Source of the DNA: an uncultured Clostridia bacterium
Lineage (GTDB): Bacteria > Bacillota > Clostridia > TANB77 > CAG-508
Direction: 5' to 3'
DNA length: 64,000 nt
Assembly (NCBI GenBank): GCA_944391745.1
Contig: CALXUS010000001.1
Location: 81,425 to 145,424 of the forward strand
Shown: positions 27,646-63,306 of the stretch, piece by piece
Layout: each line of letters opens with the position of its first letter
How positions within the stretch are numbered: the stretch's first letter is position 1
Notes under the pieces: generated by a model
The model's database searches: none
Seen by the model: the letters and a program-made list of their open reading frames with translations, nothing else
What the model was told of the DNA's origin: nothing
Program-made: the position numbers and the translations under genes

Positions 27646-27709
27646 TACTTTAATTCTCCTTTGTTCGCTTAATATAGTCTTTTCATTATTATATATAAAA
27701 TATAATAAA

Positions 27710-45343: not shown

Positions 45344-45554
45344 AATATGTGTTCTCCTTCCAAAGTTATGAATTTTATGAAAAATATCTCTATTTTTCAT
45401 ACTACTTTATATATTCGCTAATAAACTCCTTTTTCCTTCTTATTTTTACAAAAAATTTTTATGGTTTTATGTAACCATATATATTGTTTTTTTTAGCTTT
45501 GTGTAATATAATAGTTAAGCATATTATATAATTAATTAAGGAGCGTGAATTTTT

Positions 45555-46941: not shown

Positions 46942-46985
46942 AAAAAAGCATATATTACTTTTAAAGTAATATATGCTTTTTTTAG
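46942..46985. terminator. Bidirectional terminator between murC and the transglutaminase-like gene
   Basis: 15-bp inverted repeat aaaagcatatattac/gtaatatatgctttt with flanking A- and T-runs. Confidence 0.6.
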
Positions 46986-48126: not shown

Positions 48127-49167
48127 TTATCTCATCATCATATCAGCAAAAATAGCATATCCTTCTGTTGGTGAATTTAATAATACATTTGTAATTGCAC
48201 CAATAAATTTATTGTTTTGAATAATTGGAGTTCCACTCATTCCAGGTATTATTCCTCCTGTTTTATTTATTAATTCTTCATCAGTAATTTCAATTAGCAT
48301 ACTTTTATTATCCTTCGAATTTTTATAAATTTTTTTAATCTTTATTTTATATTCAGAGACCTTTCCATTTTCTAATTCGCATAGTATTTTTGCATCACCT
48401 GTTGTTATTTCTTTTCTACTAGCAACTTCAACTTCTTTTTGTTTTATAGAGTTAATGAATTCAATATTTGTAGTAGTTCCATACACACCAATACCAGTAT
48501 TACTTTCTATAGTTCCTATTTTATATCCATTATCTATTATTCCCCTTATTTCTCCTACTCTACCTTTTACACCTTTTACTATAGATACTATTTGAGCAGT
48601 TACTAATTCTCCATTAGAAATGTTTAATAAATTTCCTGTATCTACATCTGTTATTCCATGTCCAAGTGCAGCAAAAGTTTTTGTTGCTTCCTCATAATAG
48701 GTCAAAGTTCCTATTCCAGCTGCTGCATCTCTTACCCATAAGCCTAACATGTAATCTTCATTTTTTCCTTTAATAGGCATTATATTTGTATAAATTAGCT
48801 CATTATTTCTTTCATATTTTATAGATATTTCTTGTCCATCTGAAGAATTCACTATATTTATTAATGTTTGTGTATTATTTATTTCCTGTCCATTAATTTC
48901 TTTTATCATATCTCCTTCTTTAATCCCAGAATTTTCATAAGGCTTATATTTATTTCCATCTATGCCATCAACCTCTGACATACCAACAACTAATACCCCA
49001 TTCGTATACAATTTTAATCCCACAGTTCTACCTATAGGATTTACATATCTATTTGTTCCTGTACTAACCGATTTTGCGTAAATATTGTATTGTATCATAG
49101 TAGTGTATATATACAAGCTTAAACAAACTATAATTAAAATAGTTGATATAATTTTATTTTTTTTCAT
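48127..49167 (-). CDS. spoIVB: Stage IV sporulation protein B (SpoIVB, S55 peptidase with PDZ domain)
   Basis: 346 aa. PDZ region plus GMSGTPIIQNNKFIGAITNV catalytic motif. Confidence 0.88.
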   Translation of the reverse strand: MKKNKIISTILIIVCLSLYIYTTMIQYNIYAKSVSTGTNRYVNPIGRTVGLKLYTNGVLVVGMSEVDGIDGNKYKPYENSGIKEGDMIKEINGQEINNTQTLINIVNSSDGQEISIKYERNNELIYTNIMPIKGKNEDYMLGLWVRDAAAGIGTLTYYEEATKTFAALGHGITDVDTGNLLNISNGELVTAQIVSIVKGVKGRVGEIRGIIDNGYKIGTIESNTGIGVYGTTTNIEFINSIKQKEVEVASRKEITTGDAKILCELENGKVSEYKIKIKKIYKNSKDNKSMLIEITDEELINKTGGIIPGMSGTPIIQNNKFIGAITNVLLNSPTEGYAIFADMMMR

Positions 49168-49180
49168 AAACTTTCCTCTA

Positions 49181-49220
49181 AAAAAATAGTTACTCTTTAC
49201 TTAGAGTAACCATTTTTTTT
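49181..49220. terminator. Terminator at the distal end of the pilus-like operon
   Basis: tagttactct/agagtaacca stem, flanked by A7 and T8. Confidence 0.6.
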
Positions 49221-49239: not shown

Positions 49240-51141
49240 TTAAGTAGCATATTCATTAAAATATTCACTTACTTTATATAAAGCTTCTTTCTCTCTTGCA
49301 AGAGCAGTAATATAAGCTTTTCTTACATCATCATTAGGATTTTGTCCTTCGTATTCTGCATGCACACCTTCATTAGAGCTTTTAAATGGTGTTCCTTCAA
49401 GTAAATTATCTGTTGTGAATACAATATCTTCTCTTCCTATTATACATTCATAAGCACCTGAACCAGAATGAGGATAATAATAGAATGATAGTGTTGTTGA
49501 CTTATAACTTGATGGATCTACCTCATCATAAGAGGCTAATTGTTGTAAGTAATCTATACTATTATATCCTATTAATTGTCCACCAGTATATCCTCCATTA
49601 TTTAATTCTATACATCTTGGACTATGGTAAGTACCAGAAACATCATTATCTCTATTTCCAGTTTCAACTTCTCTTAAAATAATTGAATCCCTTGAAACAA
49701 ATTCTTTATTTTTTGTATTAGCTACTATTGCATAATTACTATAATATTTAAAGTTTCCTATTGGAAGTCCTTGCATGAAAGAAACAACAGTTACATTATT
49801 AGTAATTTTATACCAATCATCTTCGCTTAATACTGGTAATGTAAATTCATACCCCGAATTTTGATGAATATTAAAGTTAGCAATAATACTCATCAAATTA
49901 GATTCTATTGAACTAATTATAACATCCATTCTATGTTCATTAAATGTTGAATCTTCTGCTTCAGGATCATTATCAGGATCTTTTATATCAAAAGCATCTG
50001 TTATATCATAATCATAACGTTCATGTATAGGGACTATCTCTCCTGTTGATTCTTCTACTTTAGTATAATTTAACTGATTATTATAACTATCTGTTACAAC
50101 ATTAATCGTTGATAATCCCCCAAAAATATCCCAAAATTTTTCAGAGAATTCTTTTGCTTTTGTATAGTAATTTATTGCACTTTGATCTAAAAAGTTTCCC
50201 TCATTTAGCTGAGTATAATCAGCATTCTCGTCATTTAATACATATTTTGCTAAAGAATTTGCTTCATTAGCATTTAAATATACTCTTAAATTGTTATTAA
50301 GTCTAAAAAAGTTTATTCCTGTAACATAAGTACTACTTCCTTTTCCTATATTAGCAGAATTATCTATATAATATTTATTATTATTAAAATATACATATTG
50401 AAAATATTCTGGTTCACAAGGACTGTATTCAGTTCCAGTAGAACCATCTGTCTTAGGTATTGTATCGATAGTAACAATATATTCTCCTAGTTTTTCTTTT
50501 TCTACTAAAACACCATGAGCATTGACTGTGCCATCAATATTTACTGTAATATTATCTGGATTTACTAAATATCCTGATAAATTTATTACATCTGATCCAT
50601 TTACGCCCATCATAGTAATATAATTATCTAGTGTATAATTAATAACTATATCTAAATTACCAGAATTTGAAGTATATTCACAAGTATAATAAATAAATGG
50701 TTTTACACCATTACGTGAAGCTAATTCATTTGAATTAACTGTTAAGTATTCTTGTTTTCCATCAGTTATTGTTACAGCATTTTGATAATCACCATATAAG
50801 TAATATCCATCATATAAAGTAAATAACATTGCTGGTATATAGCCTTGTAAATCTTCTCTTCTGTATCCTGATGAGCCCATGCCTGATGCTAAACTATTGT
50901 AAAATGTATTTACAGTTGCAGATATATCTCTTATTTTTGAATCATTTACAGTTGAATAACCATTTCTTAAAGTATTCATTTGATATGCATATACGGCATC
51001 ATTAGTAGCACTTAGTAAAATGTCATCATAGGCTGCTTCTTCGGCAATGACTTTTTGATTGTTATCTACATACATATTAATTACTAATGATATTGGCAAT
51101 ATAATTACTATAAATACTACTGCTAATTGTTGTAATTTCAT
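49240..51141 (-). CDS. Large (633 aa) N-terminally anchored protein; candidate filament tip or adhesin component of the Tad-like locus
   Basis: N-terminal hydrophobic segment MKLQQLAVVFIVIILPISLV. Last gene of the operon. Confidence 0.5.
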   Translation of the reverse strand: MKLQQLAVVFIVIILPISLVINMYVDNNQKVIAEEAAYDDILLSATNDAVYAYQMNTLRNGYSTVNDSKIRDISATVNTFYNSLASGMGSSGYRREDLQGYIPAMLFTLYDGYYLYGDYQNAVTITDGKQEYLTVNSNELASRNGVKPFIYYTCEYTSNSGNLDIVINYTLDNYITMMGVNGSDVINLSGYLVNPDNITVNIDGTVNAHGVLVEKEKLGEYIVTIDTIPKTDGSTGTEYSPCEPEYFQYVYFNNNKYYIDNSANIGKGSSTYVTGINFFRLNNNLRVYLNANEANSLAKYVLNDENADYTQLNEGNFLDQSAINYYTKAKEFSEKFWDIFGGLSTINVVTDSYNNQLNYTKVEESTGEIVPIHERYDYDITDAFDIKDPDNDPEAEDSTFNEHRMDVIISSIESNLMSIIANFNIHQNSGYEFTLPVLSEDDWYKITNNVTVVSFMQGLPIGNFKYYSNYAIVANTKNKEFVSRDSIILREVETGNRDNDVSGTYHSPRCIELNNGGYTGGQLIGYNSIDYLQQLASYDEVDPSSYKSTTLSFYYYPHSGSGAYECIIGREDIVFTTDNLLEGTPFKSSNEGVHAEYEGQNPNDDVRKAYITALAREKEALYKVSEYFNEYAT

Positions 51142-51220
51142 TTTTATCCTTTCTCAAATTATTTTCATAATTTGACAAAATGGAGTAGATTAATAACCTA
51201 CCCCATTTCTTTACTTTAGT

Positions 51221-51745
51221 CTATTTTCCATTTACACTTACAATTCCGCTATGTTGAGCAGTTATGCTTGCAGTATTATTTCCAGTTACACGGTAGACAA
51301 AATCTTTTAATATAGTTCCAATAGTTCTGTTTGTATTTTTTACACTAACTGTTACCATATCACCTTGTTTTAAGTACATTGCACCTGCTTCAGAATTTAC
51401 TTCATCTAATATTTGGGTAGTGTACTTACTATAATAATAGTTTTCTCCAACTTTTGTGTATTCAGCCTCTGTAACCTTTTTTCCTGGGTTATCATCTAAT
51501 ACTTGAACTTCCATTTCAACATTATAACTATTTCCTGTTGAAGACAATATTTGAACAAAATTATCATAGTTATCTTGTGTTATTTGCCCTGTAGATCTAA
51601 TTTCATCAACAAAATCTGTTGTTGCTGCATCAACAGCTTGAGTTGTAATATCATCAGTTCTTTCAGAGGTTGACATTAGTGGAAATATGAACATTAATAT
51701 AGCAGCTAAAAATATTGCTACCACCGTTATAACTGTATCGCTCAT
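51221..51745 (-). CDS. Small N-terminally anchored protein (174 aa); pilin/pseudopilin-like candidate
   Basis: N-terminal hydrophobic helix, then a soluble domain. Operon context. Confidence 0.5.
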   Translation of the reverse strand: MSDTVITVVAIFLAAILMFIFPLMSTSERTDDITTQAVDAATTDFVDEIRSTGQITQDNYDNFVQILSSTGNSYNVEMEVQVLDDNPGKKVTEAEYTKVGENYYYSKYTTQILDEVNSEAGAMYLKQGDMVTVSVKNTNRTIGTILKDFVYRVTGNNTASITAQHSGIVSVNGK

Positions 51746-51762
51746 AACTACCTCCTTTAAAT

Positions 51763-52644
51763 TTAAGCTTCACTTTTTATATAAATGTATTGAATTACTC
51801 TTTTTGTAGTGCCTTTATTATTTGCTACAATTTCGCCATTATCTAGTTCATCTACTGAGTCTACAATATTTGAAAGAATATTTAACTGGCTTTCTGAGTT
51901 ACCTTCATCATCTTCATTTACATTTTGTACATTATTATAATTATATTCGCCATATCTTTCGACAAATTCGTAGTCCTTGCCTATTATGCCATCACTACCA
52001 CCATTGAAACTACCATATTGAAATTTTATTTGATAATATGGGTATGGTTCGTCAGGCGGATTATATGTAAATTGATTTATTGTTCCATTATATAAACTTG
52101 CTGTTCTACTAGTATAGTATTTTTCTGTAAGAGTACCATTAACAAATGCTTTAATAAACTCAAAAGAAGTTTTTTGTGTAGCACTCCATGGTTCTCTTCT
52201 AACTTGTTCATCTTGAATGTCAAAACCATATACTTTTCTTGTTTGGCTTCCAGCTTCTGTTGTGGTTATAGTAGAACCAGGTAAATATGTAGCATCAGTT
52301 TCTGTATAATAAAGAGTCATAGGCTCAATAGTAGCAAAGTTACCTGTAGTTCTATCATAGCCTGTACCTACATAAAATAATATAGTATAATTTTCTTTAT
52401 AATATCTATATAATGTAGGAATAATGGTTTCAGGCCCCACAATTCTGCTTGATAAAGCATTTACACTACCTTCACCAGTTGCATCTAATGCTAATTGTTG
52501 ATAATATTCTTTTATATCTGCATTTTGTGCTAAATTGGCAGAAGTTTGCCTTACTCTATTAAAAGAATAGACTGCTAAAGATAATGCTGCAACAAATACT
52601 AAAACTGCAAAAGCCATTTTTATGGCATGAACTGCATTCTCCAT
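51763..52644 (-). CDS. MENA-family pilin-like protein (293 aa)
   Basis: N-terminus MENAVHAIKMAFAVLVFVAALSLAVYSF, related to the three MENASKALIIAG paralogs. Confidence 0.55.
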   Translation of the reverse strand: MENAVHAIKMAFAVLVFVAALSLAVYSFNRVRQTSANLAQNADIKEYYQQLALDATGEGSVNALSSRIVGPETIIPTLYRYYKENYTILFYVGTGYDRTTGNFATIEPMTLYYTETDATYLPGSTITTTEAGSQTRKVYGFDIQDEQVRREPWSATQKTSFEFIKAFVNGTLTEKYYTSRTASLYNGTINQFTYNPPDEPYPYYQIKFQYGSFNGGSDGIIGKDYEFVERYGEYNYNNVQNVNEDDEGNSESQLNILSNIVDSVDELDNGEIVANNKGTTKRVIQYIYIKSEA

Positions 52645-52667
52645 ATTTACCCTTTCTTTATATTAAA

Positions 52668-53180
52668 TTAATCTTGATTTGCTTCAATATATATTGTTTT
52701 AACGTAACCATTTGACCAATATGTTTGTAAACCTTGTCCTGCTGTTTCATTATCATCATCACCATAAGATTCTACACCATCTTCGTCATAAGTTCCACCA
52801 TCTGTATTTGATGTTGTATATGCTCTAACTTTATATGTTCTACCAGTTTTTATAGCTGTTCCACTTGTAATTGTAGCCTCAGCAGTACTTCCATCTACTA
52901 ATCTAACTTGGATACGATTTCCTATATTTTCATCATTAGCTGCTGCTGATCTATTATTTGCACTAACTGCTGTCATTAAAGCTCTAACATTTGAACCTGA
53001 TTGACTTTCACCATAATATCCTTCAAATGGTGAATTATGTGTTGAAATTGCTTGAGTATCCATATTTGCATCAGTTGCTATTCCTGAAACATTATTGTAA
53101 ATTATAACTCCTAAACCAACTATTAAAATTGAAATTAATATTGCACCTGCAATAATAAGTGCTTTTGACGCATTTTCCAT
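52668..53180 (-). CDS. MENA-family pilin-like protein (about 170 aa)
   Basis: Start MENASKALIIAGAILISILIVGL at the ATG 53180 with a strong RBS aaaggagg. The ORF-track 5' extension lacks support. Confidence 0.6.
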   Translation of the reverse strand: MENASKALIIAGAILISILIVGLGVIIYNNVSGIATDANMDTQAISTHNSPFEGYYGESQSGSNVRALMTAVSANNRSAAANDENIGNRIQVRLVDGSTAEATITSGTAIKTGRTYKVRAYTTSNTDGGTYDEDGVESYGDDDNETAGQGLQTYWSNGYVKTIYIEANQD

Positions 53181-53293
53181 AAAATAATTCCTCCTTTGAT
53201 TTTTAATTTTTATATAATATTTAGTTTGCGTAACTAAATCTAAAAACATATAAATTTATCTATTGTTTACTTAACTTCATTTGAGTTTGCATT

Positions 53294-53737
53294 TTATTTT
53301 TCACTATTAACATCTATTTCATCAAAATGTAAATAGCTAATTAAATTAGTATTTTTATGATATTCTATTTTTGTACATTTAAAAATTCTATTTGAATATA
53401 GATTAATAAATTGACTTAAATCAGCTTGGTAAATAGATTCAATTTTAAATGTACTATCATTATCAATAAATTTTATATCTGCAATAATTGAATTAGTGTC
53501 ATTTTCGATAAAGAAATTATTTTCATCTTTACTTACTCCATTTTTTTGATTAGTATCGTAAATTTTATTAATATATGTTGCAAGATCTGTTCCAGTAATT
53601 TCCTTATTTAGTAATTTTTCATAATTAGCATTATAACTAATTACTTGTCTTTCATTTTCAGAATAGTTAAAATATAAGTACCCTATTCCTGCTATAATTA
53701 TTACAACTACTACAAAAAATATTAAGAATTTTTTCAT
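53294..53737 (-). CDS. Small N-terminally anchored protein (147 aa)
   Basis: MKKFLIFFVVVVIIIAGIGYLYF. Confidence 0.5.
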   Translation of the reverse strand: MKKFLIFFVVVVIIIAGIGYLYFNYSENERQVISYNANYEKLLNKEITGTDLATYINKIYDTNQKNGVSKDENNFFIENDTNSIIADIKFIDNDSTFKIESIYQADLSQFINLYSNRIFKCTKIEYHKNTNLISYLHFDEIDVNSEK

Positions 53738-53795
53738 TTTTTCCTCTTCTGAATTATAACATTTATTATTTTTTTATGCAATAATTTTTTACATT

Positions 53796-54359
53796 TTATC
53801 CATTTTCAAACAATATTGTTTCATTTTGTAGTATAGCATTAACGTAAGTTTCGTCATCAATTGGGGTAAAATTTATTGATGATATCATCTTTGTATCGTC
53901 ATTATATACTATATCTGTATCTTTAAATGTTCTTTTTACTGTGACAGTACCTGTAGAGCTATCACCATTAATATGACTAATTTCTACATTACATTGATAA
54001 TATGTAGAATTTCTATTATCTGTTAAATAATCATTTATATCAAAAGAATCACCTAATACTGATGAGTTATTAATTTTTACATCTACATAGTATTGATCTC
54101 CAGGTTCAGCTTCGTAGTCCGCATTATGTCTTTTAGAATAATTAATAATTGATACTACTTCTTGCATACTTATATTAGCTCTTCCTGAAAAATTTGTATA
54201 TCTAACATTAAAACTATCAATTTGGGTTTGGCTAATTTCATCATTAACATGCCTTGAATAATTTCCAAATAATACAATCATATAGCTAGCTAATGAAAGA
54301 ACTAAAATACCAATTAGTATTTCACCTGCTATAATTAAAGCTTTTGATGCATTCTCCAT
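53796..54359 (-). CDS. MENA-family pilin-like protein (187 aa)
   Basis: MENASKALIIAGEILIGILVLSLASY. Confidence 0.6.
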   Translation of the reverse strand: MENASKALIIAGEILIGILVLSLASYMIVLFGNYSRHVNDEISQTQIDSFNVRYTNFSGRANISMQEVVSIINYSKRHNADYEAEPGDQYYVDVKINNSSVLGDSFDINDYLTDNRNSTYYQCNVEISHINGDSSTGTVTVKRTFKDTDIVYNDDTKMISSINFTPIDDETYVNAILQNETILFENG

Positions 54360-54382
54360 TAGCTCACCTCATTTCTATAAAT

Positions 54383-54856
54383 TTAATCATTAACAACTTC
54401 TAATCTATGAAAGTGCATTGAAATAACTCTTGAATTTAATGCATCATATTGAACATCATCACATTCATAATATCTTTGTTTAAATTCATTTTTAGTATCA
54501 CTATCCCAAGTATCATAATCGGCTAAATAAGCATTAAGGTCCTCATTTGTAGCTGTTTCACTCGATAGTCCATCTACGGTTACTGATACTGGCTTATATC
54601 CTTCTTCGTCAGTGAATCTTGTGTTTGTATCTGTAACAAGATTTGATAATGATATTAGTTGATAACCTCTAACCGATCTTCTATTATATCCTTCAAACCT
54701 CTTATTGAATTCAAGAACTTCTTGTTGTCTTTCAGTATCGGCTTCAGCTCTTTGGTAATTTCTAATTTGTGTGTAGCCGAAAGTTAGTAGACCAACAATC
54801 ATCATTGCTATAAGTATTCCACCTGCAATAATTAAAGCTTTACTTGCATTTTCCAT
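54383..54856 (-). CDS. MENA-family pilin-like protein (157 aa)
   Basis: MENASKALIIAGGILIAMMIVGLLTF. Confidence 0.6.
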   Translation of the reverse strand: MENASKALIIAGGILIAMMIVGLLTFGYTQIRNYQRAEADTERQQEVLEFNKRFEGYNRRSVRGYQLISLSNLVTDTNTRFTDEEGYKPVSVTVDGLSSETATNEDLNAYLADYDTWDSDTKNEFKQRYYECDDVQYDALNSRVISMHFHRLEVVND

Positions 54857-54876
54857 TCTTTTACCTCTATTAATTA

Positions 54877-56955
54877 TTATGTCATTGCAGACATTGAGTC
54901 AAATGATGAAGTCATACTTGTTAGACCAATTACAACTAATGGAGCAACTAAGTAAGCAACAAATAGGCCAACAAGTGGTGTAAATCCAATCGCTCTACCT
55001 ATCATTCCTCTCTTAGAAATTAATCTATCATTTGCCTCTTTTCTCTTATCTTGATAATACTCTCTATCTGATTCTAGTTCGTCGAAAGCCTCTCTAATAG
55101 GAACTTTTTCAACGGCTGTTTGTAAACTTTCTACTATTCTAATTAGTGGTTGGAATGAAATTTCTTCTTTCATATCTTCTAATGATTCCCAAGCACCACT
55201 TTCGTAGTTATTTAAACATTTACTAATTGGCTCTTTGAAAATATCTGCATATCTCTCCATCCATTCAAGTATCATTTCAACATCAACTCTTTCAAGTCTC
55301 ATAAGCATTAATATAATTGTTTGATATTGCATTACTTCATCTTCCATTGACATTTTTCTAATAATAACTTGGAATTTTAACATAAGAATTGGTGCTGCAT
55401 ATCCAATTATCGCAAATACCATAGCCATTAATATTTCAAACCACTTTAGGTATTCAGAGTTAACAGTTTGCAATTTATCTAATATTTTTGCTGCATTAGT
55501 AGAAATTGTATTTGCATCTGCATCCTCATAATATTTAGAATCTCTCATTGCATCTTCTATATCTTCTTGGGTAGTATCTAACTTACCTCTAAACATATCT
55601 AGGAAATAGTTATGTATTTGAGTAGTTTCCATTGCTTTTTTGTAATCTTTACCATCCAGTTCACCAATTAAGTCATAATCTGTTGTGGGTTCAGTATAAA
55701 TATAGTTAATCTGAACATTGTGAAGCATAATAAATATAAATATTGATGCAACAAATACAACTACTGTTAGACACAATCTATTAATATACAGCCATTCAAT
55801 TTTCTGTTTTGAAGCAGCAGCTTTTAATGTTTCTTTAAGCTTTCTTCTTTCTTTTGTTCCATCTTTAGGAATAAATAAATCCACAAATTTCTTAACAGGC
55901 TTAATTTTATATAATTTAGCTTGCCAAGGATTTTGATTATTTTCAAGTTTAATATTAACTGCTCCATTGTCTTTTAGTTTTCTAATTAATATATAGCATA
56001 TAAATGTAACAAGTAATATTAATATTTGTATAATCATACCTAATTTACCATTATAGAATGATTTAGTAAATGAGAAATTGCTTAGTGCCCAACTTTTAAA
56101 TGGCTCTAGTAAAACCATAGGTACTATTGCTATAAAAGATAAGCTTTGAAATGTATAATTAAGTTTATCCCTTTTTAATATTTCAAGCTGCATTTCCTGT
56201 GTAATATTATCTAGGTTTTTTAGATATAATGATGTTCCATCTACTTTTCTATCACCAAACTCTTGTGTAAGGTATGATATACCAGCAAATTCTTTTAAAT
56301 AATTATTTGGTGCTACATCATAATACTTTTCAAGTTCCACTTCTGGATCATCAGAATTTAAAATATTATATATTTTTTCAGCTTGTCTAGATATTTCAAC
56401 ATGTTCATCATCTTGAGCGGTTTGATATATTGCTTCTCCAACCATGTTTGTTTCATGATATGAGTGTCTCATTGCAGCGAAAAAGTCTACCTGTTGATTT
56501 AACAAATTATTATCTAGTTTATCCACCATTCCATCTACCAAAGAATCTACTATAAATAGTTCGAAAACTAATATAATAAACATTATAAGTGGATTACTTT
56601 TTGTCATAAATATAACAGCAAATGTAACAGGAATAATTATAATTAAAGCTTTTGTTATAATTTGAGCTGTTTGTAATCTTGTTAAAAATTCATCATCTAT
56701 ATTAATAATTTCTAGTCTTCTTCTTATTTTTAATAAATATCTTCTTAATGGAGGAAACTTTAAATATTTTACATATAGTTTTTGGTACATTACATCTTTA
56801 GAAAAATTGCTTTCTCTTGTACCTTTTCTTAATTGCTCGATTCTTACAACATCAGAGCTTTGCATTTTCTTTCTTAAAGCAAGATATGCAATTATTACTA
56901 TTGCAAATATGCCTAATACAACCCCCATCATGATAAAAATTGTATCATTAGACAT
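54877..56955 (-). CDS. Polytopic inner-membrane protein (692 aa); putative fused TadB/TadC (GspF-like) platform protein
   Basis: Multiple TM helices interspersed with two large cytoplasmic domains. Position immediately after the secretion ATPase. Confidence 0.45.
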   Translation of the reverse strand: MSNDTIFIMMGVVLGIFAIVIIAYLALRKKMQSSDVVRIEQLRKGTRESNFSKDVMYQKLYVKYLKFPPLRRYLLKIRRRLEIINIDDEFLTRLQTAQIITKALIIIIPVTFAVIFMTKSNPLIMFIILVFELFIVDSLVDGMVDKLDNNLLNQQVDFFAAMRHSYHETNMVGEAIYQTAQDDEHVEISRQAEKIYNILNSDDPEVELEKYYDVAPNNYLKEFAGISYLTQEFGDRKVDGTSLYLKNLDNITQEMQLEILKRDKLNYTFQSLSFIAIVPMVLLEPFKSWALSNFSFTKSFYNGKLGMIIQILILLVTFICYILIRKLKDNGAVNIKLENNQNPWQAKLYKIKPVKKFVDLFIPKDGTKERRKLKETLKAAASKQKIEWLYINRLCLTVVVFVASIFIFIMLHNVQINYIYTEPTTDYDLIGELDGKDYKKAMETTQIHNYFLDMFRGKLDTTQEDIEDAMRDSKYYEDADANTISTNAAKILDKLQTVNSEYLKWFEILMAMVFAIIGYAAPILMLKFQVIIRKMSMEDEVMQYQTIILMLMRLERVDVEMILEWMERYADIFKEPISKCLNNYESGAWESLEDMKEEISFQPLIRIVESLQTAVEKVPIREAFDELESDREYYQDKRKEANDRLISKRGMIGRAIGFTPLVGLFVAYLVAPLVVIGLTSMTSSFDSMSAMT

Positions 56956-56977
56956 TTAAAGCTCCCCTCCTTTTTTA

Positions 56978-58882
56978 TTAAATATCACGGTTTGCACTTA
57001 TTTTATCTCCCCATATTCTTTCAATAAATTTACAAAAATCTTTTGCATCATTATCATCCATATTAAGTAGCATTTCTTTTAAGTTTGTATCAGAAATTCT
57101 ATTTGTCATTACATATTTTCCGTCTTGGTATTCAAGAATATTTACATATTTATATAATTCTTTATTTGTTTGTTTTGTATAATATCTTGTTGTATTATCT
57201 GCAAATTTATCGAATTTTCCTTCTAACGTTTTTTCTTTTCTATGATCATAATTGTAATCATTAACATCTTCTACTGGAATACATTCTGTAATTCTTTCAA
57301 CATATCTTTTTCCTTTGAAATCTTTTGTTAAGTGAATATCAAAGTTTAAAACTTGTACAACCTGCTCTTCTGCAGTTTTTTCATTAGTGAAAACACCAGT
57401 TCTAAGCATTGAGTTACGAAGAGCTGTAACTAAGTTAGGGAATGTTTTAGCGTGGTGAGTAAATAATGTAAACTTAGAAGCAACCTGTGCTGCCTGAATC
57501 ATCCAAGATGCTACGGGGTCAGTTGCAACCTCACCAATGATATTTACAGAACCATCAGTCTTTTTCTGAACATCTAGACCTTGCTGTCCTGAAATTGTAT
57601 CTGTTTCCCTAAAAGTTAATATATTTCTTGTAGGGTATATTTTTCTTAAGTGAAGCTCGAAAGCTGTTTCCTGAACACGAATGTTCATTGTTTCATATAT
57701 GTTTTCTATCATACCCATAAGCATTGTTGTTTTACCACAACCCTGCTCACCAGTTATTGATATAATTCTTGCTCCTTTAACTAAATATTTTAATAGTTCT
57801 ATTGTATCAGCGCTTCCCTCTTCACCTTTAAACCATTGTTCTAGAGTTGAACGCTTAACATCGAATTTTCTTACGAAGAATGCCCATGTTTCTGAGAAAC
57901 TTGGTCTAACAACAACGACACGTGAACCATCTTTCATTTCATTAATCTTATAACCATTTGTATCTGAAAGTTGTCCTGGGTTATTGTATTTATATATGTT
58001 TTGGCATACTCTTTTTAATTCTGCTTCAGTTCCAAATGATAAGCAAGCAAGTCTAATTGATTTACCTTGGAAGAATATCCATATACTATCACAAGCTCTA
58101 GGTACTTTATGTTCCATAACTTGTGATAAATAACTTGAATCTGATTGTGCAACTTGGCTTAAGAAACTTTCTGGCATACCTGATACACCACCTGATACAC
58201 CATCTATGTTCATATCTCTTACTTCATCAATTGAGCTGTATCCTTTGTATTTTTGATAAATTCTTTGGACAATAACATTTAATTTATCATCAAAAGTTAG
58301 ATTGTAGTTTTCTTTTTCATATATTTCGTTTATTTCTTCTGGAGTTATAACATAAGAAGGTTTAGATTCTCCAGAAGTATATTTTAATCTAGCTAAATCA
58401 TACTTCTTAATAAGTTCTGTTAAAGCTTCATATCCATAGTCTTTTTTATACATATATATTAAAATATCAAATTTATCCTGTGCTGTAAGCAATGATGGTA
58501 CATCAAATGGAATTGCTTTAGAAATATTTGTTTCATCAACACCATATTCTTGTGATAATAAATCATATATTAATTCTTTAACATATTTCTTATCATTAAC
58601 ATCACCATAAGTACAACCTTTTAATGCTTTCTTTAATTCGTATTTTTTATTTTTTCTTCTTTTTAATTCTTCTTCTGAAAGTCCTAAGTCATAAAGGTTA
58701 ACTTTAGTGATTTCATCCATTCTTTTCTTAACAAAGTTCATCATCATATCTAAAGTGTAAGTTTTATCATCTACTACTACTTGTTCTTCTACTTTAGCAT
58801 TTTGATTTTTCTTTATCATTCTCATAACAAGCATTACCGCAATAACTACTACAGCAATAATTAAAATTACATTAAGAAACAT
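56978..58882 (-). CDS. TadA/CpaF-family (VirB11-like) secretion ATPase with a roughly 330-aa N-terminal extension
   Basis: Walker A GEQGCGKTT. Asp box. IIGEV ... FTHHAKT His-box-like region. Confidence 0.7.
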   Translation of the reverse strand: MFLNVILIIAVVVIAVMLVMRMIKKNQNAKVEEQVVVDDKTYTLDMMMNFVKKRMDEITKVNLYDLGLSEEELKRRKNKKYELKKALKGCTYGDVNDKKYVKELIYDLLSQEYGVDETNISKAIPFDVPSLLTAQDKFDILIYMYKKDYGYEALTELIKKYDLARLKYTSGESKPSYVITPEEINEIYEKENYNLTFDDKLNVIVQRIYQKYKGYSSIDEVRDMNIDGVSGGVSGMPESFLSQVAQSDSSYLSQVMEHKVPRACDSIWIFFQGKSIRLACLSFGTEAELKRVCQNIYKYNNPGQLSDTNGYKINEMKDGSRVVVVRPSFSETWAFFVRKFDVKRSTLEQWFKGEEGSADTIELLKYLVKGARIISITGEQGCGKTTMLMGMIENIYETMNIRVQETAFELHLRKIYPTRNILTFRETDTISGQQGLDVQKKTDGSVNIIGEVATDPVASWMIQAAQVASKFTLFTHHAKTFPNLVTALRNSMLRTGVFTNEKTAEEQVVQVLNFDIHLTKDFKGKRYVERITECIPVEDVNDYNYDHRKEKTLEGKFDKFADNTTRYYTKQTNKELYKYVNILEYQDGKYVMTNRISDTNLKEMLLNMDDNDAKDFCKFIERIWGDKISANRDI

Positions 58883-58897
58883 AATTTGCTCCTTTCT

Positions 58898-59737
58898 CTA
58901 TAATAAGCCATTCTTTTTTTCTTGCATTTTATATTCTAGTGAATTTGTCGTTTCCCTTAGTTGCTTAATAAAATAAGTGTCTTTATTGTCATATCCGTCT
59001 AATCTTTGAATTTTTAAAAAGTAATCTATTATTCTTCCATCTGAGCACTCATCTGAAAATAATATATTATATGGCACAACAAGTGGAATATTTTTTTCTT
59101 TTAAAAATCTTGCAACATTTTTATTAGTATATTTTGAATTAGGATTATATCTTCCCATCATTAATAGTACATTACTTTTTCTATAAAATTCATTATTGAG
59201 TTTAAGTTTCAAAAAGTTGTTAATTGAAGCCATATTTTGTGAAAAATTTACAACAACCAAATCTGAAACTCCTAATATTTTTTCTTTACTTTCTTTTGGA
59301 ACTTTTTTGCTTAAATCTATGAGAACTATATCATAAGTTTGATTAGCAACATCAGCAATTTGTGAAAAATAATTTGAAATATTTGCATATTCCTTATAAT
59401 CTACTGTTTTGGGTCCCTGTAAAATGTCTAATCTATCTTTTAATACTGGTTTTGTATAGCTTCTTATAACTTCTCCTGATGCTCTATTACTTGCAAAAGT
59501 TCTAACTAATCCTTCAAGTCCATTTGATACGTCCATGACATTAGCATTTGCAAATAATCCTCTTCTTCTATTGTTAGGATTCCAAAAACAGTTTTCCAAC
59601 GTTTTATCAATGAATTCAGTTGAAAACAATAAGATTTTATAGTTATGTTCAATAGCCATAGCTGTTGCTATGGCAGAAATCGAACATGTTTGAGCAGTTT
59701 CTTTTAAATCTTCACTTACAAATGTTATAACTGACAT
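58898..59737 (-). CDS. ParA/MinD-like protein with a degenerate P-loop (TadZ/CpaE-like)
   Basis: VITFVSEDLKETAQTCSISAIATAMAIEH ... YDIVLIDLS. Confidence 0.5.
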   Translation of the reverse strand: MSVITFVSEDLKETAQTCSISAIATAMAIEHNYKILLFSTEFIDKTLENCFWNPNNRRRGLFANANVMDVSNGLEGLVRTFASNRASGEVIRSYTKPVLKDRLDILQGPKTVDYKEYANISNYFSQIADVANQTYDIVLIDLSKKVPKESKEKILGVSDLVVVNFSQNMASINNFLKLKLNNEFYRKSNVLLMMGRYNPNSKYTNKNVARFLKEKNIPLVVPYNILFSDECSDGRIIDYFLKIQRLDGYDNKDTYFIKQLRETTNSLEYKMQEKKNGLL

Positions 59738-59751
59738 TTTTTATCCTTTCA

Positions 59752-60432
59752 TTATTTTCTTCTAATAATTTTTCTAATTTCAGATTGTTCTATTATTCCT
59801 TCCATCATTAAAGACATTAAATATTCTAAACATTCTTTATACAAATTTGTATATGGTCTAATATCTATTTGTTTTATTAATTGATTAGATAAATTTGCAT
59901 TTCTATCTCGATCAGAGTCTGGAAATTGTACTATATTGCTATTCCACTTTACTTGAAATGATTCTAATAAGTGATTTAAATATTCATCATGTTTGTTATT
60001 TAAATCCGATGATATTATTACTTTCGTTAGTTCTATAGGAGTTCTTAATACTCCTAATATTTCTAAACTTCTTTGCAATTCATATTCGTCATAAGAAGTA
60101 CTGTAAAAAATCTTCCTTGAGTTTGGTAAAGCAAATGATGTAAATGTTTGTGGATTGTCAGTATCGATTATAACAATATCATAATTTAATGTCTGCGTAC
60201 CTAGATATTGGCATATTTGTCCTAGATTCATGAAGCCTAGTGCAACATCCACTCCATCGTACTCACTAACATAAGTAGGAGTAGATGCTACTCTTGGTAC
60301 AATATATCTAAGTCTTTGCATTATAGTAGCATCAACTAGTAGAACACTTTTATTTAATTTAGATAATATCTTTGCTATATTTAATAGCAAATCTTTTTTA
60401 TCGTTTACTCCTACAAAACCTATTTGCTCCAC
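59752..60432 (-). CDS. Second ParA/MinD-like degenerate protein
   Basis: IGFVGVNDKKDLLLNIAKILSKLNKSVLLVDAT ... YDIVIIDTD. Confidence 0.5.
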   Translation of the reverse strand: MEQIGFVGVNDKKDLLLNIAKILSKLNKSVLLVDATIMQRLRYIVPRVASTPTYVSEYDGVDVALGFMNLGQICQYLGTQTLNYDIVIIDTDNPQTFTSFALPNSRKIFYSTSYDEYELQRSLEILGVLRTPIELTKVIISSDLNNKHDEYLNHLLESFQVKWNSNIVQFPDSDRDRNANLSNQLIKQIDIRPYTNLYKECLEYLMSLMMEGIIEQSEIRKIIRRK

Positions 60433-60464
60433 AATTAATTTCCTTTCTATATCTTTAGTTTAAA

Positions 60465-61550
60465 TTATTCTAATGAGTCTAAATATGTTTGTCTTGCAGC
60501 CTCAGCATCGCTTATTTCTTGCTGTACTCCTGAATTTGCTTTTGAATCTCTTTCTTCTTGTTGCATTTTGTTTAATTCAGCATTTATATTTTCTCTGTTT
60601 ATTCCTTGTGTTCCTAATCTATTGCTTAATTCTGAAATTTCTTCAGCTACTACATTAGGATCTCTATTTCCTATCAAATCTTGTACTTCTCCATTTGGTA
60701 CATAAGTAAGTGTTGCTTCTGTTTGAAGTCCTGGTTCAACATATCTTGTTATATATAATCTGCTTCCATCTATCATATATGATTCTACTATAGCATTACT
60801 CATAAGTAAAATTTCATCTTCTGTAAGATTCAAAGTAAATGTATTTACTGAAGGTATTCCTCCTTCATCTAATATTGTTATTCTTTTTTTAGAAACTACT
60901 ATGTAATCTGTACCATCTGGTAATCTTAATCTTACATCTATAACATCATCTGTTTCTATATCTGCAGGTAAAGATATCATATTATATTCTTGTTTTCTTG
61001 TTGAATCTGATGTTAATTCGAAACTTCTAGCTATTGAATCTGTAGTTAATACTGTATTTTTATTCATGTTAATTTTAGCCATAGCTGGTGTTCCTTCAAC
61101 TATAACAGTTCTGTTTACACCATCCCTTGTAGTAATAGTACCAGTTTGTGTATCTTCATTAAGTCCTTCTATTTGAAAGTTTTCTCCATCTATAGTAACA
61201 TAAGTTATTACATTTCCATTTGTATCTACTCCACTTTGTACTGGGTTTCCGTCTTGATCAGTTAGAAAATAATCTCCAACTTCAGAAACATAGTTGCTTG
61301 GAATAGTATCTGGGTCAATTTCGTCTTTTAAAGTTAGCATATCTGGTGTAATTAATTGTCCTGCTTTTACATCTTGATTAAGAGTATATACTTTTACCAA
61401 TCTTGCCACTCTTTCTTCTTCTGCTCTTCTCATTTGCATAATAAATATTACTAGAGCAATAATTGCTATTAATCCAAATGCTCCAGCTATTACTAAACCT
61501 TTTATAAATGAATTACGCGCTTTTCTTTCCAATGGATTTGTTGTTGCCAT
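60465..61550 (-). CDS. CpaB/RcpC-like Flp pilus assembly protein (N-terminal TM plus SAF domain)
   Basis: TM GLVIAGAFGLIAIIALVIFI. SAF-like YTLNQDVKAGQLITPDMLTLKDE. Confidence 0.6.
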   Translation of the reverse strand: MATTNPLERKARNSFIKGLVIAGAFGLIAIIALVIFIMQMRRAEEERVARLVKVYTLNQDVKAGQLITPDMLTLKDEIDPDTIPSNYVSEVGDYFLTDQDGNPVQSGVDTNGNVITYVTIDGENFQIEGLNEDTQTGTITTRDGVNRTVIVEGTPAMAKINMNKNTVLTTDSIARSFELTSDSTRKQEYNMISLPADIETDDVIDVRLRLPDGTDYIVVSKKRITILDEGGIPSVNTFTLNLTEDEILLMSNAIVESYMIDGSRLYITRYVEPGLQTEATLTYVPNGEVQDLIGNRDPNVVAEEISELSNRLGTQGINRENINAELNKMQQEERDSKANSGVQQEISDAEAARQTYLDSLE

Positions 61551-61668
61551 CGTTAATTCCTCCTTAATATCATAAAATCTTGATTATAATTTTATATCAT
61601 AGTTTTTTAAAAAACAATAAATATATTAATTATTACTTTTTTTTAATAATGTTGTAATATTTGTAATA

Positions 61669-62793
61669 TTAATTTGCTATTTTATATGGATTCTCCAGTG
61701 TTCCCATACCTTCTGAGAAATTAAATCTATCTAATATTACTACAGGTAAAATATTCATTGTACTACTTGAACTTTTGTCTGATGAATCATATAACTTGCT
61801 TCCATTAATTGTAATATCATCATTTACGCTTATATTATTTATCAAAAATTCTGCATTTTCGCTATTATTTATACTTCTTGTTGAAAGCCAATATTGTCCA
61901 TAAGGTATAATTTCTAAATAGTCTTCCTTGTAAGTAACTTTTCCAGAATAAAATGAATTACTTAATACTAATTTTCTTGTTTTTTCTATTCCATTATAAA
62001 ATTTACTTTGTTCATAATCATTATCTTCTTCTAAAATCACTAATGGATAACTAGCATTATCATATTCTTTTTTGGATTCGTATAAGTTCCCCTTTTGCTC
62101 TTCAATATTGCTCCCTAATTTTTCTATATCATTTAAATTAATGTTTCTCGCTTTTGTACCTAGACTTTTATTTGAGAAAATCTCATTACAAGCATCGTTT
62201 AAAACTTTTACTGCATTATTGTATCCATTAGCTCCTGTAAGCTTTAATGCACTTGTAGTTAAATTGGTTGGTGTAATTTTAACTACATTATTGTTATTCT
62301 CAACATCTATAACTCTCCATGTTATACCTCCATTATAAGGTATATTTATTTGAACTTCTGCAGAGTTTCCTATTACATTTGATTCTATTGTATAATTTCC
62401 ACCATCATAGGTATATTGAATGTAATCTCCTATTTTTACACCTACACTTTTTGCATTTAAATTCCAAAGTTCATTTATTTTCATACTATATCCACCTTGA
62501 GTTGTTACAAGTGCTGCTATTTCTTGATTATCTTTGTTTTCTATTGTTCCATATTTTTTTAATCTTTCAATAAGTTCATCATAATTATTCGGAGGATTCT
62601 CTGATAAGTCTAATTGTATTTCTTCTTTTAAAGAAAGTTTTTCGGTTTCTTCTTTTTTTCTATTAGCAATATCAACAATTTCTTCATTTTTTGAGTTTGA
62701 AGCTATTAAAATTCCTGTTATAATTGTAAGTATAACAACTGTAATTACTAAAATAATTAAAGTTACACCTTCATTTTTCTTAAAATCTATCAT
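61669..62793 (-). CDS. Prepilin-like N-terminal domain protein (374 aa) with a large C-terminal domain; Ile instead of Glu at +5
   Basis: MIDFKKNEG then VTLIILVITVVILTIITGILIAS. Confidence 0.55.
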   Translation of the reverse strand: MIDFKKNEGVTLIILVITVVILTIITGILIASNSKNEEIVDIANRKKEETEKLSLKEEIQLDLSENPPNNYDELIERLKKYGTIENKDNQEIAALVTTQGGYSMKINELWNLNAKSVGVKIGDYIQYTYDGGNYTIESNVIGNSAEVQINIPYNGGITWRVIDVENNNNVVKITPTNLTTSALKLTGANGYNNAVKVLNDACNEIFSNKSLGTKARNINLNDIEKLGSNIEEQKGNLYESKKEYDNASYPLVILEEDNDYEQSKFYNGIEKTRKLVLSNSFYSGKVTYKEDYLEIIPYGQYWLSTRSINNSENAEFLINNISVNDDITINGSKLYDSSDKSSSSTMNILPVVILDRFNFSEGMGTLENPYKIAN

Positions 62794-62808
62794 TTTTTCT
62801 CCTTTGCA

Positions 62809-63306
62809 CTAATTTTCACTATTTTCATTTGCTATTTTCTTTTCATTCTTTGCTTTTATAACTTCTTTTATTTTTAAAACTAACATAACTAATAATATTC
62901 CAAATATTACTCCAAGTGTATCAATTATTACATCATTTATACTAGGATGTCTGCCATTTGAAAATATTTGATGAATTTCATCAGTACTAGCATATATAAT
63001 TCCCCATAAAGTTATAATTATTATTCTTATCTTTTCTTTTATATTAAATGTTGTAATAAATGCATAAGAAAAAATTCCTAATGTTGTATATATGCCAAAA
63101 TGTGCTAATTTTCTAATTACTTGTTCTCCTATTCTAATAAATTCTTCCCTATTTTCTTCTATATTTAATATATCTGCAATTTTTATTGTTATAGTTTTAC
63201 TTAAGTTACCTGATTTTTCTCCGTTTTGGGCAGAAAATCCAAATATTATTAGTGAATTTAAAATAATTAATATTAAAAAGATTATTCTTATTATTTGCTT
63301 TTTCAT
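62809..63306 (-). CDS. VanZ-like family membrane protein; first gene of the locus
   Basis: RKLAHFGIYTTLG ... DEIHQIFSNGRHPSINDVIIDTLG. Confidence 0.65.
   Translation of the reverse strand: MKKQIIRIIFLILIILNSLIIFGFSAQNGEKSGNLSKTITIKIADILNIEENREEFIRIGEQVIRKLAHFGIYTTLGIFSYAFITTFNIKEKIRIIIITLWGIIYASTDEIHQIFSNGRHPSINDVIIDTLGVIFGILLVMLVLKIKEVIKAKNEKKIANENSEN

Follow-up and report, generated by a model that had tools for sequence, protein, structure and literature searches.

The DNA analyzed here, a stretch of 64,000 nucleotides from an uncultured Clostridia bacterium of the order TANB77 (GenBank assembly GCA_944391745.1, contig CALXUS010000001.1, positions 81,425 to 145,424; the window below), carries on its minus strand a conserved unit of 12 genes, from 60465-61550 down to 49240-51141. 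This locus is the TANB77 pilus gene cluster and is probably a divergent, Bacillota-specific relative of the Tad (type IVc) pilus machine. Since the same cluster with the same gene-by-gene assignment is present in the literature (Kim et al., 2024, Nat Commun 15:10726; PMC11680825), the locus is filed as already known, and an earlier reading of the window made from the letters only (the sequence-only reading), in which it appeared as an undescribed subtype of type IV filament system, is not upheld on this point.

TANB77 is a prevalent uncultured order of gut bacteria, and of all taxa it showed the most consistent enrichment in patients who responded to cancer therapy with checkpoint inhibitors (Kim et al., 2024; PMC11680825). 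The last protein of the cluster, protein 938, was reported to activate dendritic cells through TLR4 in its recombinant form and to improve anti-PD-1 responses in mice (PMC11680825); therefore, the way in which the structure is built and displayed has medical interest. A term search of the main text of that paper found nothing on an N-terminal motif, a prepilin peptidase, operator repeats, or sporulation genes including spoIVB. The present analysis adds to the published description the leaderless-looking N-terminus of the subunits, a structure model of the small pilin-like protein, the consistent lack of a peptidase gene at the locus, a conserved operator of the WalR-like type, relatives of the cluster on plasmids and in cultured Bacilli, and the membrane-anchored CpaF-like ATPase as a family trait, its transmembrane (TM) helix being listed without comment in the table of the paper. 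The N-terminus, the lack of a peptidase gene, and the anchored ATPase, together with the single large platform protein, make up a coherent set of departures.

Identity and Conservation of the Cluster

The sequence-only reading described an array of 14 tightly packed genes at 49240-63306. All 14 minus-strand open reading frames (ORFs) were found at these coordinates, with intergenic gaps of 14-118 nt, a Shine-Dalgarno-like sequence before each start codon, and a G+C content of 26-30%, uniform with that of the flanks. The same array had been taken for one operon. Its genes are real, but only genes 3-14 are conserved, and gene 3, encoding a CpaB-like protein, has its own conserved promoter region.

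The published "pilus gene cluster" consists of 12 genes and was found in 122 of 129 TANB77 species (~95%); its reference copy encodes proteins 927-938 of HRGM_Genome_2725, CAG-245 sp000435175 (Kim et al., 2024; PMC11680825). These proteins were annotated as CpaB, TadZ, CpaE, TadA with one TM helix, a TadC+TadB fusion with eight TM helices, and seven pilin-like proteins, with lengths of 358/231/280/640/693/165/170/143/146/237/178/621 aa; the TadZ and CpaE proteins are COG1192-like, and the ATPase belongs to COG4962 (PMC11680825). In the window, the lengths are 361/226/279/634/692/157/187/147/170/293/174/633 aa, in the same order as in Table 1 of that paper. Thus, gene order and lengths were found here as in the published cluster, and the anchor protein, for which at least 80% similarity across the order was published, is conserved here as well. 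The hosts are likewise low-GC uncultured gut Clostridia, and nothing essential differs; this genome adds two genes upstream, for a VanZ-like protein and for a protein of 374 aa. The published assignments of the machinery were made with AlphaFold2 and Foldseek, and six of the seven small proteins were without homology (PMC11680825). The cluster was called exclusive to TANB77, with the ATPase as its highly conserved anchor protein (PMC11680825).

For comparison, one genome per species was scanned, which yielded 591 matching stretches, and 80 loci were kept. All of these are from uncultured Clostridia, as metagenome-assembled genomes (MAGs) or CAG bins, including Clostridium sp. CAG:389, from the guts of humans, rabbits, ruminants, and chickens; they are labeled Clostridia, Clostridium sp., Clostridiaceae, or Bacillota. 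The 12-gene core was recognized in 80 of 80 loci, with genes 3-14 kept nearly everywhere; this synteny does not include the VanZ and 374-aa genes. Thousands of ATPase homologues are 80-92% identical to the protein of the window. Median identities, calculated from tblastn of 16 window proteins against the 80 loci, were 82% for the ATPase (range 76-94%), 63% for the 692-aa membrane protein, 56% for the 174-aa protein, 55% for spoIVB, and 32-43% for the others. The ATPase is thus far better conserved than everything else at the locus (82% against 55% for spoIVB).

Putative Motor, Platform, and Scaffold Proteins

The motor is a secretion ATPase of 634 aa (56978..58882, minus strand) with an N-terminal TM helix, a further N-terminal region of ~240 aa, and a C-terminal extension of ~95 aa. 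The Walker A motif GEQGCGKTT, already noticed in the sequence-only reading, is intact, as are the Asp box, Walker B, and His box. When the single sequence was compared with solved structures, CpaF was the only significant match (1.8e-8). A profile of 28 family members, compared with the Protein Data Bank (PDB), matched CpaF best (9e-19), followed by FlaI (2.6e-7), PilT (1.4e-6), archaeal GspE (1e-5), VirB11 (1e-4), and GspE/PilB (~2e-4). Because CpaF stands at the top of this ranking, the motor is assigned to the TadA/CpaF type. The Pfam T2SSE model was passed by half a bit (25.4 bits, cut-off 24.9), and TIGR03819 failed (38 bits, cut-off 373).

The first gene of the conserved unit encodes a CpaB/RcpC-like protein of 361 aa (60465..61550, minus strand) with an N-terminal TM helix and a SAF-like domain. 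Matches to SAF (0.0033) and to TIGR03177 CpaB (1.6e-4) are both below the cut-offs, and a family profile compared with PDB sequences gave noise only. Orthologues from Tumebacillus and Cohnella match SAF (E <= 1e-5), and those of plasmids pPPM1a and pBsph are annotated as SAF domain-containing. Two TadZ-like proteins follow, both candidates for the ParA/MinD class and both without a Walker A motif. For the first (226 aa, 59752..60432, minus strand), the N-terminus VEQIGFVGVNDKKDLL has no GKT, and the family profile gives a marginal MinD match (0.099); its published counterpart was reported to be structurally similar to TadZ (Kim et al., 2024; PMC11680825). The second (279 aa, 58898..59737, minus strand), also without a GKT motif, is weakly placed in the ParA/MinD/BY-kinase class by its family profile (CapB, 2.2e-4; ParA-family ATPase 3ea0, 0.0065; Get3, 0.017), and its counterpart was reported to be structurally similar to CpaE (PMC11680825). 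The presumed platform is a polytopic membrane protein of 692 aa (54877..56955, minus strand) with ~7 TM segments in a hydropathy scan. A TadB/TadC-type duplication was tested, and its two halves were not detectably homologous (hhalign probability 2%, with a shallow alignment); the counterpart was reported as a TadC+TadB fusion by structural similarity (PMC11680825). Among the 14 proteins of the array, family searches thus gave a solid match for VanZ, a match barely over the cut-off for T2SSE, matches below the cut-off for CpaB and SAF, and no match above the cut-off for the rest.

The Tad-type core proposed in the sequence-only reading is supported by this set, in which the CpaB-like, TadZ/CpaE-like, ATPase, and platform genes stand in the same order as in the Tad/Flp loci of Aggregatibacter (tad), Caulobacter (cpa), and Bifidobacterium breve (tad). 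As in other monoderm Tad loci, family searches found no secretin in the neighborhood. The differences from Tad/Flp systems are considerable. Neither a Flp pilin with the G/XXXXEY motif, as had been noted before, nor TadE_N pseudopilins were found by family searches, and the subunits are proteins of 130-300 aa with a globular domain, whereas Flp pilins are helical hairpins of ~50 aa. Additionally, the ATPase is TM-anchored with ~240 additional N-terminal residues, a single presumed platform protein of 692 aa stands in place of TadB plus TadC, both TadZ-like proteins are without a P-loop, and the curated Tad models all score far below their cut-offs.

Two other groups of filaments were compared. 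Archaeal type IV pili and archaella, whose subunits have class III signal peptides cut by FlaK/PibD/EppA, share with the locus the absence of Glu5, a K-[AG]/hydrophobic site (here and below, a slash within such a motif marks the possible cleavage site) that could be read at residues 6-8, and weak DUF515 matches; FlaI is the second-best ATPase match, but CpaF is far closer. No FlaJ-like, FlaH, FlaG/F, or peptidase genes were found here, the N-terminus would be an exceptionally short and uncharged leader, and the system was seen in Bacillota only. Among monoderm machines, the Com pseudopilus (ComGA-GG) and the type IVa pili (PilB/C/D) likewise have several minor pilin-like proteins, and the neighboring 374-aa protein has a ComGE-like N-terminus (0.043). 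However, the ATPase resembles CpaF much more closely than it does PilB, GspE, or ComGA (~2e-4), and there is neither a GFxxxE motif nor a PilC/ComGB signature here.

Pilin-Like and Other Anchored Proteins

Seven small or anchored proteins are encoded downstream of the platform gene. Four families among them (157, 187, 170, and 293 aa) begin with M-E-N-A-[STAV]-x-[AG]-[LI] followed by ~20 hydrophobic residues, and 3-5 genes of this MENA type were found per locus. The hydrophobic MENA N-terminus pointed out in the sequence-only reading is therefore real and strongly conserved, both in 44 homologues of the 170-aa protein and across the four families. Two of the proteins have weak matches (0.0068 and 0.071) to the archaeal family DUF515.

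The 170-aa protein (52668..53180, minus strand) is the candidate major subunit. The ORF of 193 aa truly starts at the internal Met24; this start is backed by gene callers (P0121, 170 aa, 99% identical) and by the strong ribosome-binding site (RBS) AAAGGAGGAA before the ATG. A family search scored 6900 proteins at E <= 0.001. In the 44 homologues, the first 28 residues are almost invariant, M1, E2, N3, and A4 being fully so, and the remainder is variable. The gene has the strongest RBS of the array, a spacer of 113 nt upstream, and a tandem duplication in some loci of several lineages, and for these reasons its product is taken as the putative major subunit.

The AlphaFold2 model of this protein, built with the 44-sequence alignment, has a predicted local distance difference test score (pLDDT) of 78, with 86-95 over the first 30 residues. 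It begins with a helix at residues 2-53 (52 residues), after which one strand, another helix, and a further four strands make up a small alpha/beta domain. N-terminal helices of ~52 residues are typical in length of type IV pilins, and the model has the lollipop outline of such a pilin. A Foldseek search with the full model found nothing significant, and a pilin-family sequence profile compared with the PDB found no solved pilin. The pilin fold envisaged for the MENA proteins thus gained no support from structure comparison, in which two AlphaFold models had no significant match to any solved pilin.

The other MENA proteins are candidate minor subunits: those of 157 aa (54383..54856, N-terminus MENASKALIIAGGILIAMMIVGLL, position conserved across loci), 187 aa (53796..54359, N-terminus MENASKALIIAGEILIGILVLSL), and 293 aa (51763..52644, N-terminus MENAVHAIKMAFAVLVFVAALSL, with orthologues starting MENAV or MENAS), all on the minus strand. 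Non-MENA N-termini (MSDTVITVV..., MKLQQLAVV...) also occur among the small proteins. The 147-aa protein (53294..53737, minus strand) starts with MKKFLIFFVVVV, has an N-terminal signal anchor and no family match, and is a conserved, putative accessory protein, kept in 75 of the 80 loci with a median identity of 43%. The 174-aa anchored protein (51221..51745, minus strand), the best conserved of the small proteins, has the motifs F.FPLMS..ER.DDI and FVD.[VI]R..G.IT; DUF4320 matches are marginal (0.017 here, and in 4 of 22 orthologues).

The last gene encodes an anchored protein of 633 aa (49240..51141, minus strand, N-terminus MKLQQLAVVFIVIILPISLV), the orthologue of the published "pilin 938", for which a TadE/PilV-like structure was reported in the N-terminal quarter (Kim et al., 2024; PMC11680825). 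Conservation is confined to its N-terminal part, the C-terminal part being variable, and its orthologues are 425-840 aa long. Pfam scans of all these orthologues found nothing consistent; one of them has Listeria-Bacteroides repeats (2e-19). The 633-aa protein is a candidate tip or adhesin subunit.

Prepilin Peptidase and the N-Terminus of the Putative Subunits

A prepilin peptidase is regarded as a universal core part of type IV filaments. Peptidases of the A24 family have the signature G.[GA]D.K. Hydrophobic ORFs were examined for it throughout the window and in the 80 loci, including 10 kb on either side of each, and none contained it. The Pfam A24 model also had no match in the 10 kb beyond the window (74 kb covered in this genome), so the absence of a nearby peptidase gene, claimed in the sequence-only reading, stands for this range. 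The loci of Paenibacillus, Tumebacillus, Cohnella, and the MAG described below likewise showed no A24 gene, and none is annotated at three plasmid loci. The gene may be encoded elsewhere in the genome, by analogy with tadV, which can be a "loner" gene, and with MSH loci that have no peptidase (PMC6668835).

The MENA proteins have no basic leader and no Gly-1 before the hydrophobic helix. A small residue invariably occupies position 7, with Ala in 97% of the TANB77 proteins and Gly in some TANB77 and Paenibacillus proteins. It is preceded by Lys in 74% and followed by Leu in 94%. Such an N-terminus can be read in either of two ways: as uncleaved, with Glu2 beside the free N-terminus, or as a 7-residue leader removed after K-[AG].

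According to the latter reading, the locus encodes a conventional Tad pilus, the MENA proteins are prepilins with a 7-residue class III leader (MENASK-A/L), and an A24 peptidase is encoded elsewhere; this is quite conceivable, if somewhat short of an even chance. It is favored by the small residue 7, preceded by Lys and followed by Leu, since peptidases of the archaeal and TadV types prefer K-[AG]/hydrophobic sites. Three proteins of the window, all on the minus strand, have classical prepilin-like K-G/[IV][ST]L N-termini: an RCC1-repeat protein (25642-27717), a transglutaminase-like protein (46982-48109), and the 374-aa protein (61669-62793). Such N-termini suggest that a prepilin peptidase may exist somewhere in the genome, and peptidases away from the pilus locus are documented (PMC6668835).

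Other features fit a cleaved leader poorly. The net charge of the leader would be about zero, and at ~90 loci, which represent at least six genera, no A24 gene was found within 10 kb. Leaders that are discarded tend to vary in sequence, to be basic, and to end in Gly, whereas the most broadly conserved residues here, in Bacilli as well as Clostridia, are Asn and Ala, placed 1-3 residues after the start (N-A-x-K-A-L). The uncleaved reading is favored by the conservation of this Asn-Ala pair well outside TANB77, by the lack of charge in the segment, and by the consistent absence of a peptidase gene at the locus. It can be proposed, tentatively and with more doubt than trust, that the locus represents a widespread peptidase-free branch of type IV filaments in Bacillota, chromosomal in TANB77 and Paenibacillaceae and borne by many large plasmids of Bacilli and Clostridia, with leaderless subunits M-(E/S/N)-N-A-x-K-A-L that would be inserted and polymerized uncleaved. 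In such filaments, an acidic or polar residue by the free N-terminus would replace the N-methyl-Phe1/Glu5 pair. A literature phrase search found no paper on leaderless or peptidase-independent type IV pilins. If true, the peptidase-free reading would mean a new assembly logic, and the list of "universal" components would need revision.

Homologous Loci Outside TANB77

When 1.84 billion cluster representatives were searched exhaustively with HMMER, 1257 clusters proved to be related to the ATPase, 374 of them at E <= 1e-30. The best 150 clusters are mostly near full length (~600-650 aa) with 31-53% identity, and the named relatives belong to Paenibacillus, Cohnella, Longirhabdus, Tumebacillus, and Ferviditalea. 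Large plasmids of Bacillota also carry the ATPase: 34 were found, with sizes of 100-543 kb and a non-mobilizable type in every case, including pPPM1a, pBsph, plasmids of Alkalihalophilus pseudofirmus OF4, C. botulinum, and C. argentinense, and Butyrivibrio megaplasmids. The system is not confined to TANB77, and the published exclusivity is contradicted.

The loci compared outside TANB77 (L081-L084 and L088-L091) are from Paenibacillus, Tumebacillus, Cohnella, a cellulolytic Bacillota MAG, pPPM1a, pBsph, and C. botulinum plasmid p12/29. They share a core of a CpaB-like protein, two TadZ-like proteins, a TM-anchored ATPase, and a membrane protein of 670-697 aa, in this order, followed by 1-3 small anchored proteins of the MEN type, a protein similar to the 174-aa one, and a relative of the last gene product of ~325 aa. 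The TM anchor of the ATPase is absent in the C. botulinum plasmid copy. Identities between the window and Paenibacillus were 47% for the ATPase (E 0), 27% for the 692-aa protein (9e-83), 34% for the CpaB-like protein (3e-20), 24% for the 279-aa TadZ-like protein (3e-20), and 24% for the 174-aa protein (7e-12); the N-terminal ~170 residues of the 633-aa protein are 27% identical to a Paenibacillus protein of 326 aa (0.012). The small proteins start with MENISTGL in Paenibacillus, MSNAQKAL in Tumebacillus and Cohnella, MNNASSAL on pPPM1a, MDNSIKAI in the Bacillota MAG, and MGENARKAL on the C. botulinum plasmid. Therefore, the leaderless-looking N-A-x-K-A-L start is a family trait. The presence of homologues in cultured and tractable bacteria (P. 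polymyxa M1 with pPPM1a, Lysinibacillus sphaericus with pBsph, Tumebacillus flagellatus, and Cohnella) makes the biology of the putative TANB77 pilus testable in the laboratory.

Several genes stand beside these loci. In all five Bacilli loci, the core is followed by a gene for a DUF5704 protein of ~1040-1140 aa (L082 18441-21749, L083 18677-21793, L088 18075-21506, L089 21524-24724, and L090 16826-19939), which is preceded by one for an SLH or a copper-amine-oxidase-N1 ("stalk") protein. In Bacilli, the DUF5704 protein may be what the machine displays, as cargo or as adhesin; no paper mentioning DUF5704 was found in a literature search. Genes with a GGDEF domain lie just downstream of the loci on pPPM1a (L089 24888-25997) and C. 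botulinum p12/29 (L091 24327-25376), and these neighbors hint at cyclic di-GMP control. A GGDEF-domain protein is also encoded in the window, at 34536-35627, 14 kb from the locus.

Regulatory Region and Terminator

The regulatory region of the conserved operon lies at 61589..61668 on the minus strand, upstream of the CpaB-like gene. Two direct TATTACA boxes at 61653-61668 are followed, at 61629-61650, by the inverted repeat ATTATTA-N8-TAATAAT and then by a promoter with the -35 element TTGTTT (61612-61617), a spacer of 17 nt, and the -10 element TAAAAT (61589-61594). The pair of TATTACA boxes is unique in the window, with 0.01 pairs expected. A common layout was found in 72 regions upstream of the CpaB-like gene: ATATTACA occurs in one to four direct copies with a phase of 11 bp, followed by a conserved promoter (-35 TTGATT, 17-nt spacer, -10 TAAAAT) and a conserved 5' untranslated region of ~60 nt that ends with AAGGGAGGAATTTGTCATG. 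Phased boxes were present in 72 of 72 regions, whereas the background rate is 0.33 per 260 nt; the window and its closest relatives differ in having a spacing of 9 bp instead of 11. This layout is shared although the upstream neighbors differ among the 72 loci, and for this reason the operon is considered to start at gene 3.

Read on the opposite strand, the boxes are TGTAAT-N5-TGTAAT, and 60 of the 72 regions fit TGTWAH-N5-TGTWAH, a pattern with only 100 matches on both strands of all 1.53 Mb of loci. This pattern is the WalR consensus of B. subtilis (PMC9210968). By their sequence, the phased repeats look like binding sites of an OmpR/WalR-type response regulator. The boxes are absent at the Tumebacillus locus and at the locus of the Bacillota MAG (L084).

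At the other end, a hairpin with a U-run resembling an intrinsic terminator (49180..49210, minus strand; hairpin at 49189-49210, dG -12.3 kcal/mol) lies between the last gene and spoIVB. Its sequence is GTTACTCT-AAGTAA-AGAGTAAC, followed by the U-run TATTTTTTT / UAUUUUUUU. Only ~13 nt separate the end of the U-run from the start codon of spoIVB, so there is no room for a spoIVB promoter downstream of the hairpin. Within the array, the spacer before the candidate major pilin gene (53181-53293, minus strand) has a small AT-rich hairpin ~45 nt upstream of the gene, which was also found in other loci; its stems vary yet stay complementary (TTTAGTT...AACTAAA, TTGTCTT...AAGACA, TTAGATT...AATCTAA), and a conserved AGTTATTAG motif lies just upstream of it. 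RNAalifold predicted no pairs in the MAFFT-aligned spacers, because MAFFT left these small AT-rich hairpins out of register.

Proposed Function and Alternative Explanations

The operon would be transcribed from the conserved sigma-A-type promoter before the CpaB-like gene to the hairpin before spoIVB. A membrane-tethered hexamer of the CpaF-like ATPase would drive the 692-aa platform, which would pull anchored subunits from the membrane and stack them via their hydrophobic N-terminal helices, with the CpaB-like protein and the two TadZ-like pseudo-ATPases scaffolding and positioning the machine. The 170-aa MENA protein (52668-53180) would serve as the major subunit, the other MENA proteins together with the 174-aa and 633-aa proteins could form a priming or tip complex, and the variable C-terminal part of the 633-aa protein could be an exposed adhesin. 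Genomic context and protein architecture suggest gut adhesion by an adhesive filament as the most likely function.

Several observations weigh against the assignment to a Tad-like pilus. No pilus has been observed, and TANB77 is uncultured (Kim et al., 2024; PMC11680825). The seven small proteins had no match to Flp or TadE_N, and the hydrophobic ORFs, as described above, lack the A24 motif. The 692-aa protein had no Pfam or NCBIfam match at E <= 0.1 and no T2SSF signature by sequence, and a 14-member profile compared with the PDB found no PilC, GspF, or EpsF chain; its presumed TadB/C nature comes from a single Foldseek result in the literature. Context and architecture suggest a filament-subunit role for the MENA proteins, and the major, minor, and tip roles of individual subunits are, in the same way, putative.

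Instead of a long filament, the machine could form a short pseudopilus or piston across the thick wall, used for protein secretion (in the manner of a type II secretion system, possibly with a type VII-like link) or for DNA transfer or uptake. This is improbable, though some genomic contexts point in its direction. The 34 large plasmids that carry relatives are predicted to be non-mobilizable, and some relatives stand beside plasmid replication or relaxation genes. In one Paenibacillus chromosome, the locus comes directly after genes on the same strand for an EssC-like FtsK/SpoIIIE ATPase (ORF of 1341 aa, called gene 1328 aa) and a WXG100-like protein (L082 646-7522; WXG100 match 4.7e-5, below the cut-off), another WXG100 gene lies downstream (L082 21791-21848), and a WXG100 gene adjoins the Tumebacillus locus (L083 6780-7058). 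Such neighbors, of which TANB77 loci showed none, might connect the machine with a type VII-like module. Among NCBIfam models, the ATPase matches a "conjugal transfer-associated" TadA family best, though far below the cut-off. The TANB77 locus, however, is chromosomal, single-copy, and syntenic beside spoIVB, with the base composition of its flanks. No FtsK or WXG100 genes were found within 10 kb upstream in this genome, and neither a relaxase nor VirB4 was found among the called genes of three TANB77 contigs, the 80 loci not being annotated for these. The large variable last protein, as well as the SLH/stalk and DUF5704 proteins of Bacilli, fit surface display better. An analogy with conjugation by B. 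thuringiensis pXO16 was considered and rejected: pXO16 uses a pCW3-like type IV secretion system, and no B. thuringiensis plasmid was found among the matches.

A sporulation-associated apparatus, co-regulated with spoIVB, spoVA, and spoVG, is very unlikely. It would be consistent with the position of spoIVB, which directly follows in 56-63 of the 80 loci, depending on the threshold and with several loci ending early, and here begins ~13 nt past the terminator U-run; spoVG and spoVA genes are present in the wider neighborhood. However, the conserved promoter is of the housekeeping type, TTGATT-17-TAAAAT being unlike the consensus of sigma-E, F, G, or K, and the terminator separates the operon from spoIVB. 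Moreover, the homologues in Bacilli and on plasmids are not beside sporulation genes, and no protein matched a SpoIIIA family above the cut-off. The type of promoter, the terminator, and the lack of linkage to spoIVB outside TANB77 were the reasons to reject a role in sporulation.

Neighboring Genes

The first two genes of the array are lineage-specific neighbors, not parts of the conserved system. The VanZ-like membrane protein (165 aa, 62809..63306, minus strand; Pfam VanZ, 3.5e-20), which in the sequence-only reading headed the locus, adjoins the cluster in only 7-10 of the 80 related loci, depending on the length threshold and in the closest relatives only, and shares with the 374-aa gene a separate promoter-like site. 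As for the promoter and terminator that had been said to bracket the array, the hairpin at 49189-49210 exists, and a sigma-70-like site is present before VanZ (63364-63335, 11/12 matches), but the generic promoter scan did not exceed chance (102 sites, 114 expected) and is uninformative in the AT-rich DNA of the window.

The 374-aa protein (61669..62793, minus strand) has the prepilin-like N-terminus KKNEG/VTLIILV without Glu5 and no family match above the cut-off (ComGE, 0.043). A homologue was found in 4 of the 80 related loci, near full length in one (L031). Its earlier description as prepilin-like is accurate for the N-terminus, but N-termini of this type are scattered over unrelated proteins and do not belong to the conserved system. 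The motif K-G/[IV][ST]L[IV].L with a hydrophobic stretch and no Glu5 was also found at L001 457-1875, L003 3355-4872, L064 37-390, and L075 3848-4945. Its carriers are large, mutually unrelated, extracellular-looking proteins; these could be either substrates of an unseen prepilin peptidase or surface proteins on which a pilin-type anchor has been reused.

Immediately downstream of the array lies spoIVB (48127-49167, start codon at 49167), as had been recognized in the sequence-only reading (Peptidase_S55, 1.6e-77). It is followed by the gene for the transglutaminase-like protein (46982-48109, minus strand) and by genes for a Mur ligase, SpoVG (45038-45400), BacA, and MntP. Upstream of VanZ, a divergent Band_7 gene was found, and the next 10 kb contain genes for MgsA, alanine racemase, and RuvA and the spoVA operon. 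This operon, spoVAC/AD/AEB (L085 2557-4474), surrounds the pilus locus together with spoIVB and spoVG, and the reduced-genome lineage appears to retain these sporulation genes. Elsewhere in the window, a protein of 905 aa (2602-5319, minus strand) has a mucin-binding MucBP domain (2.4e-12) and is likely another gut-adhesion factor.

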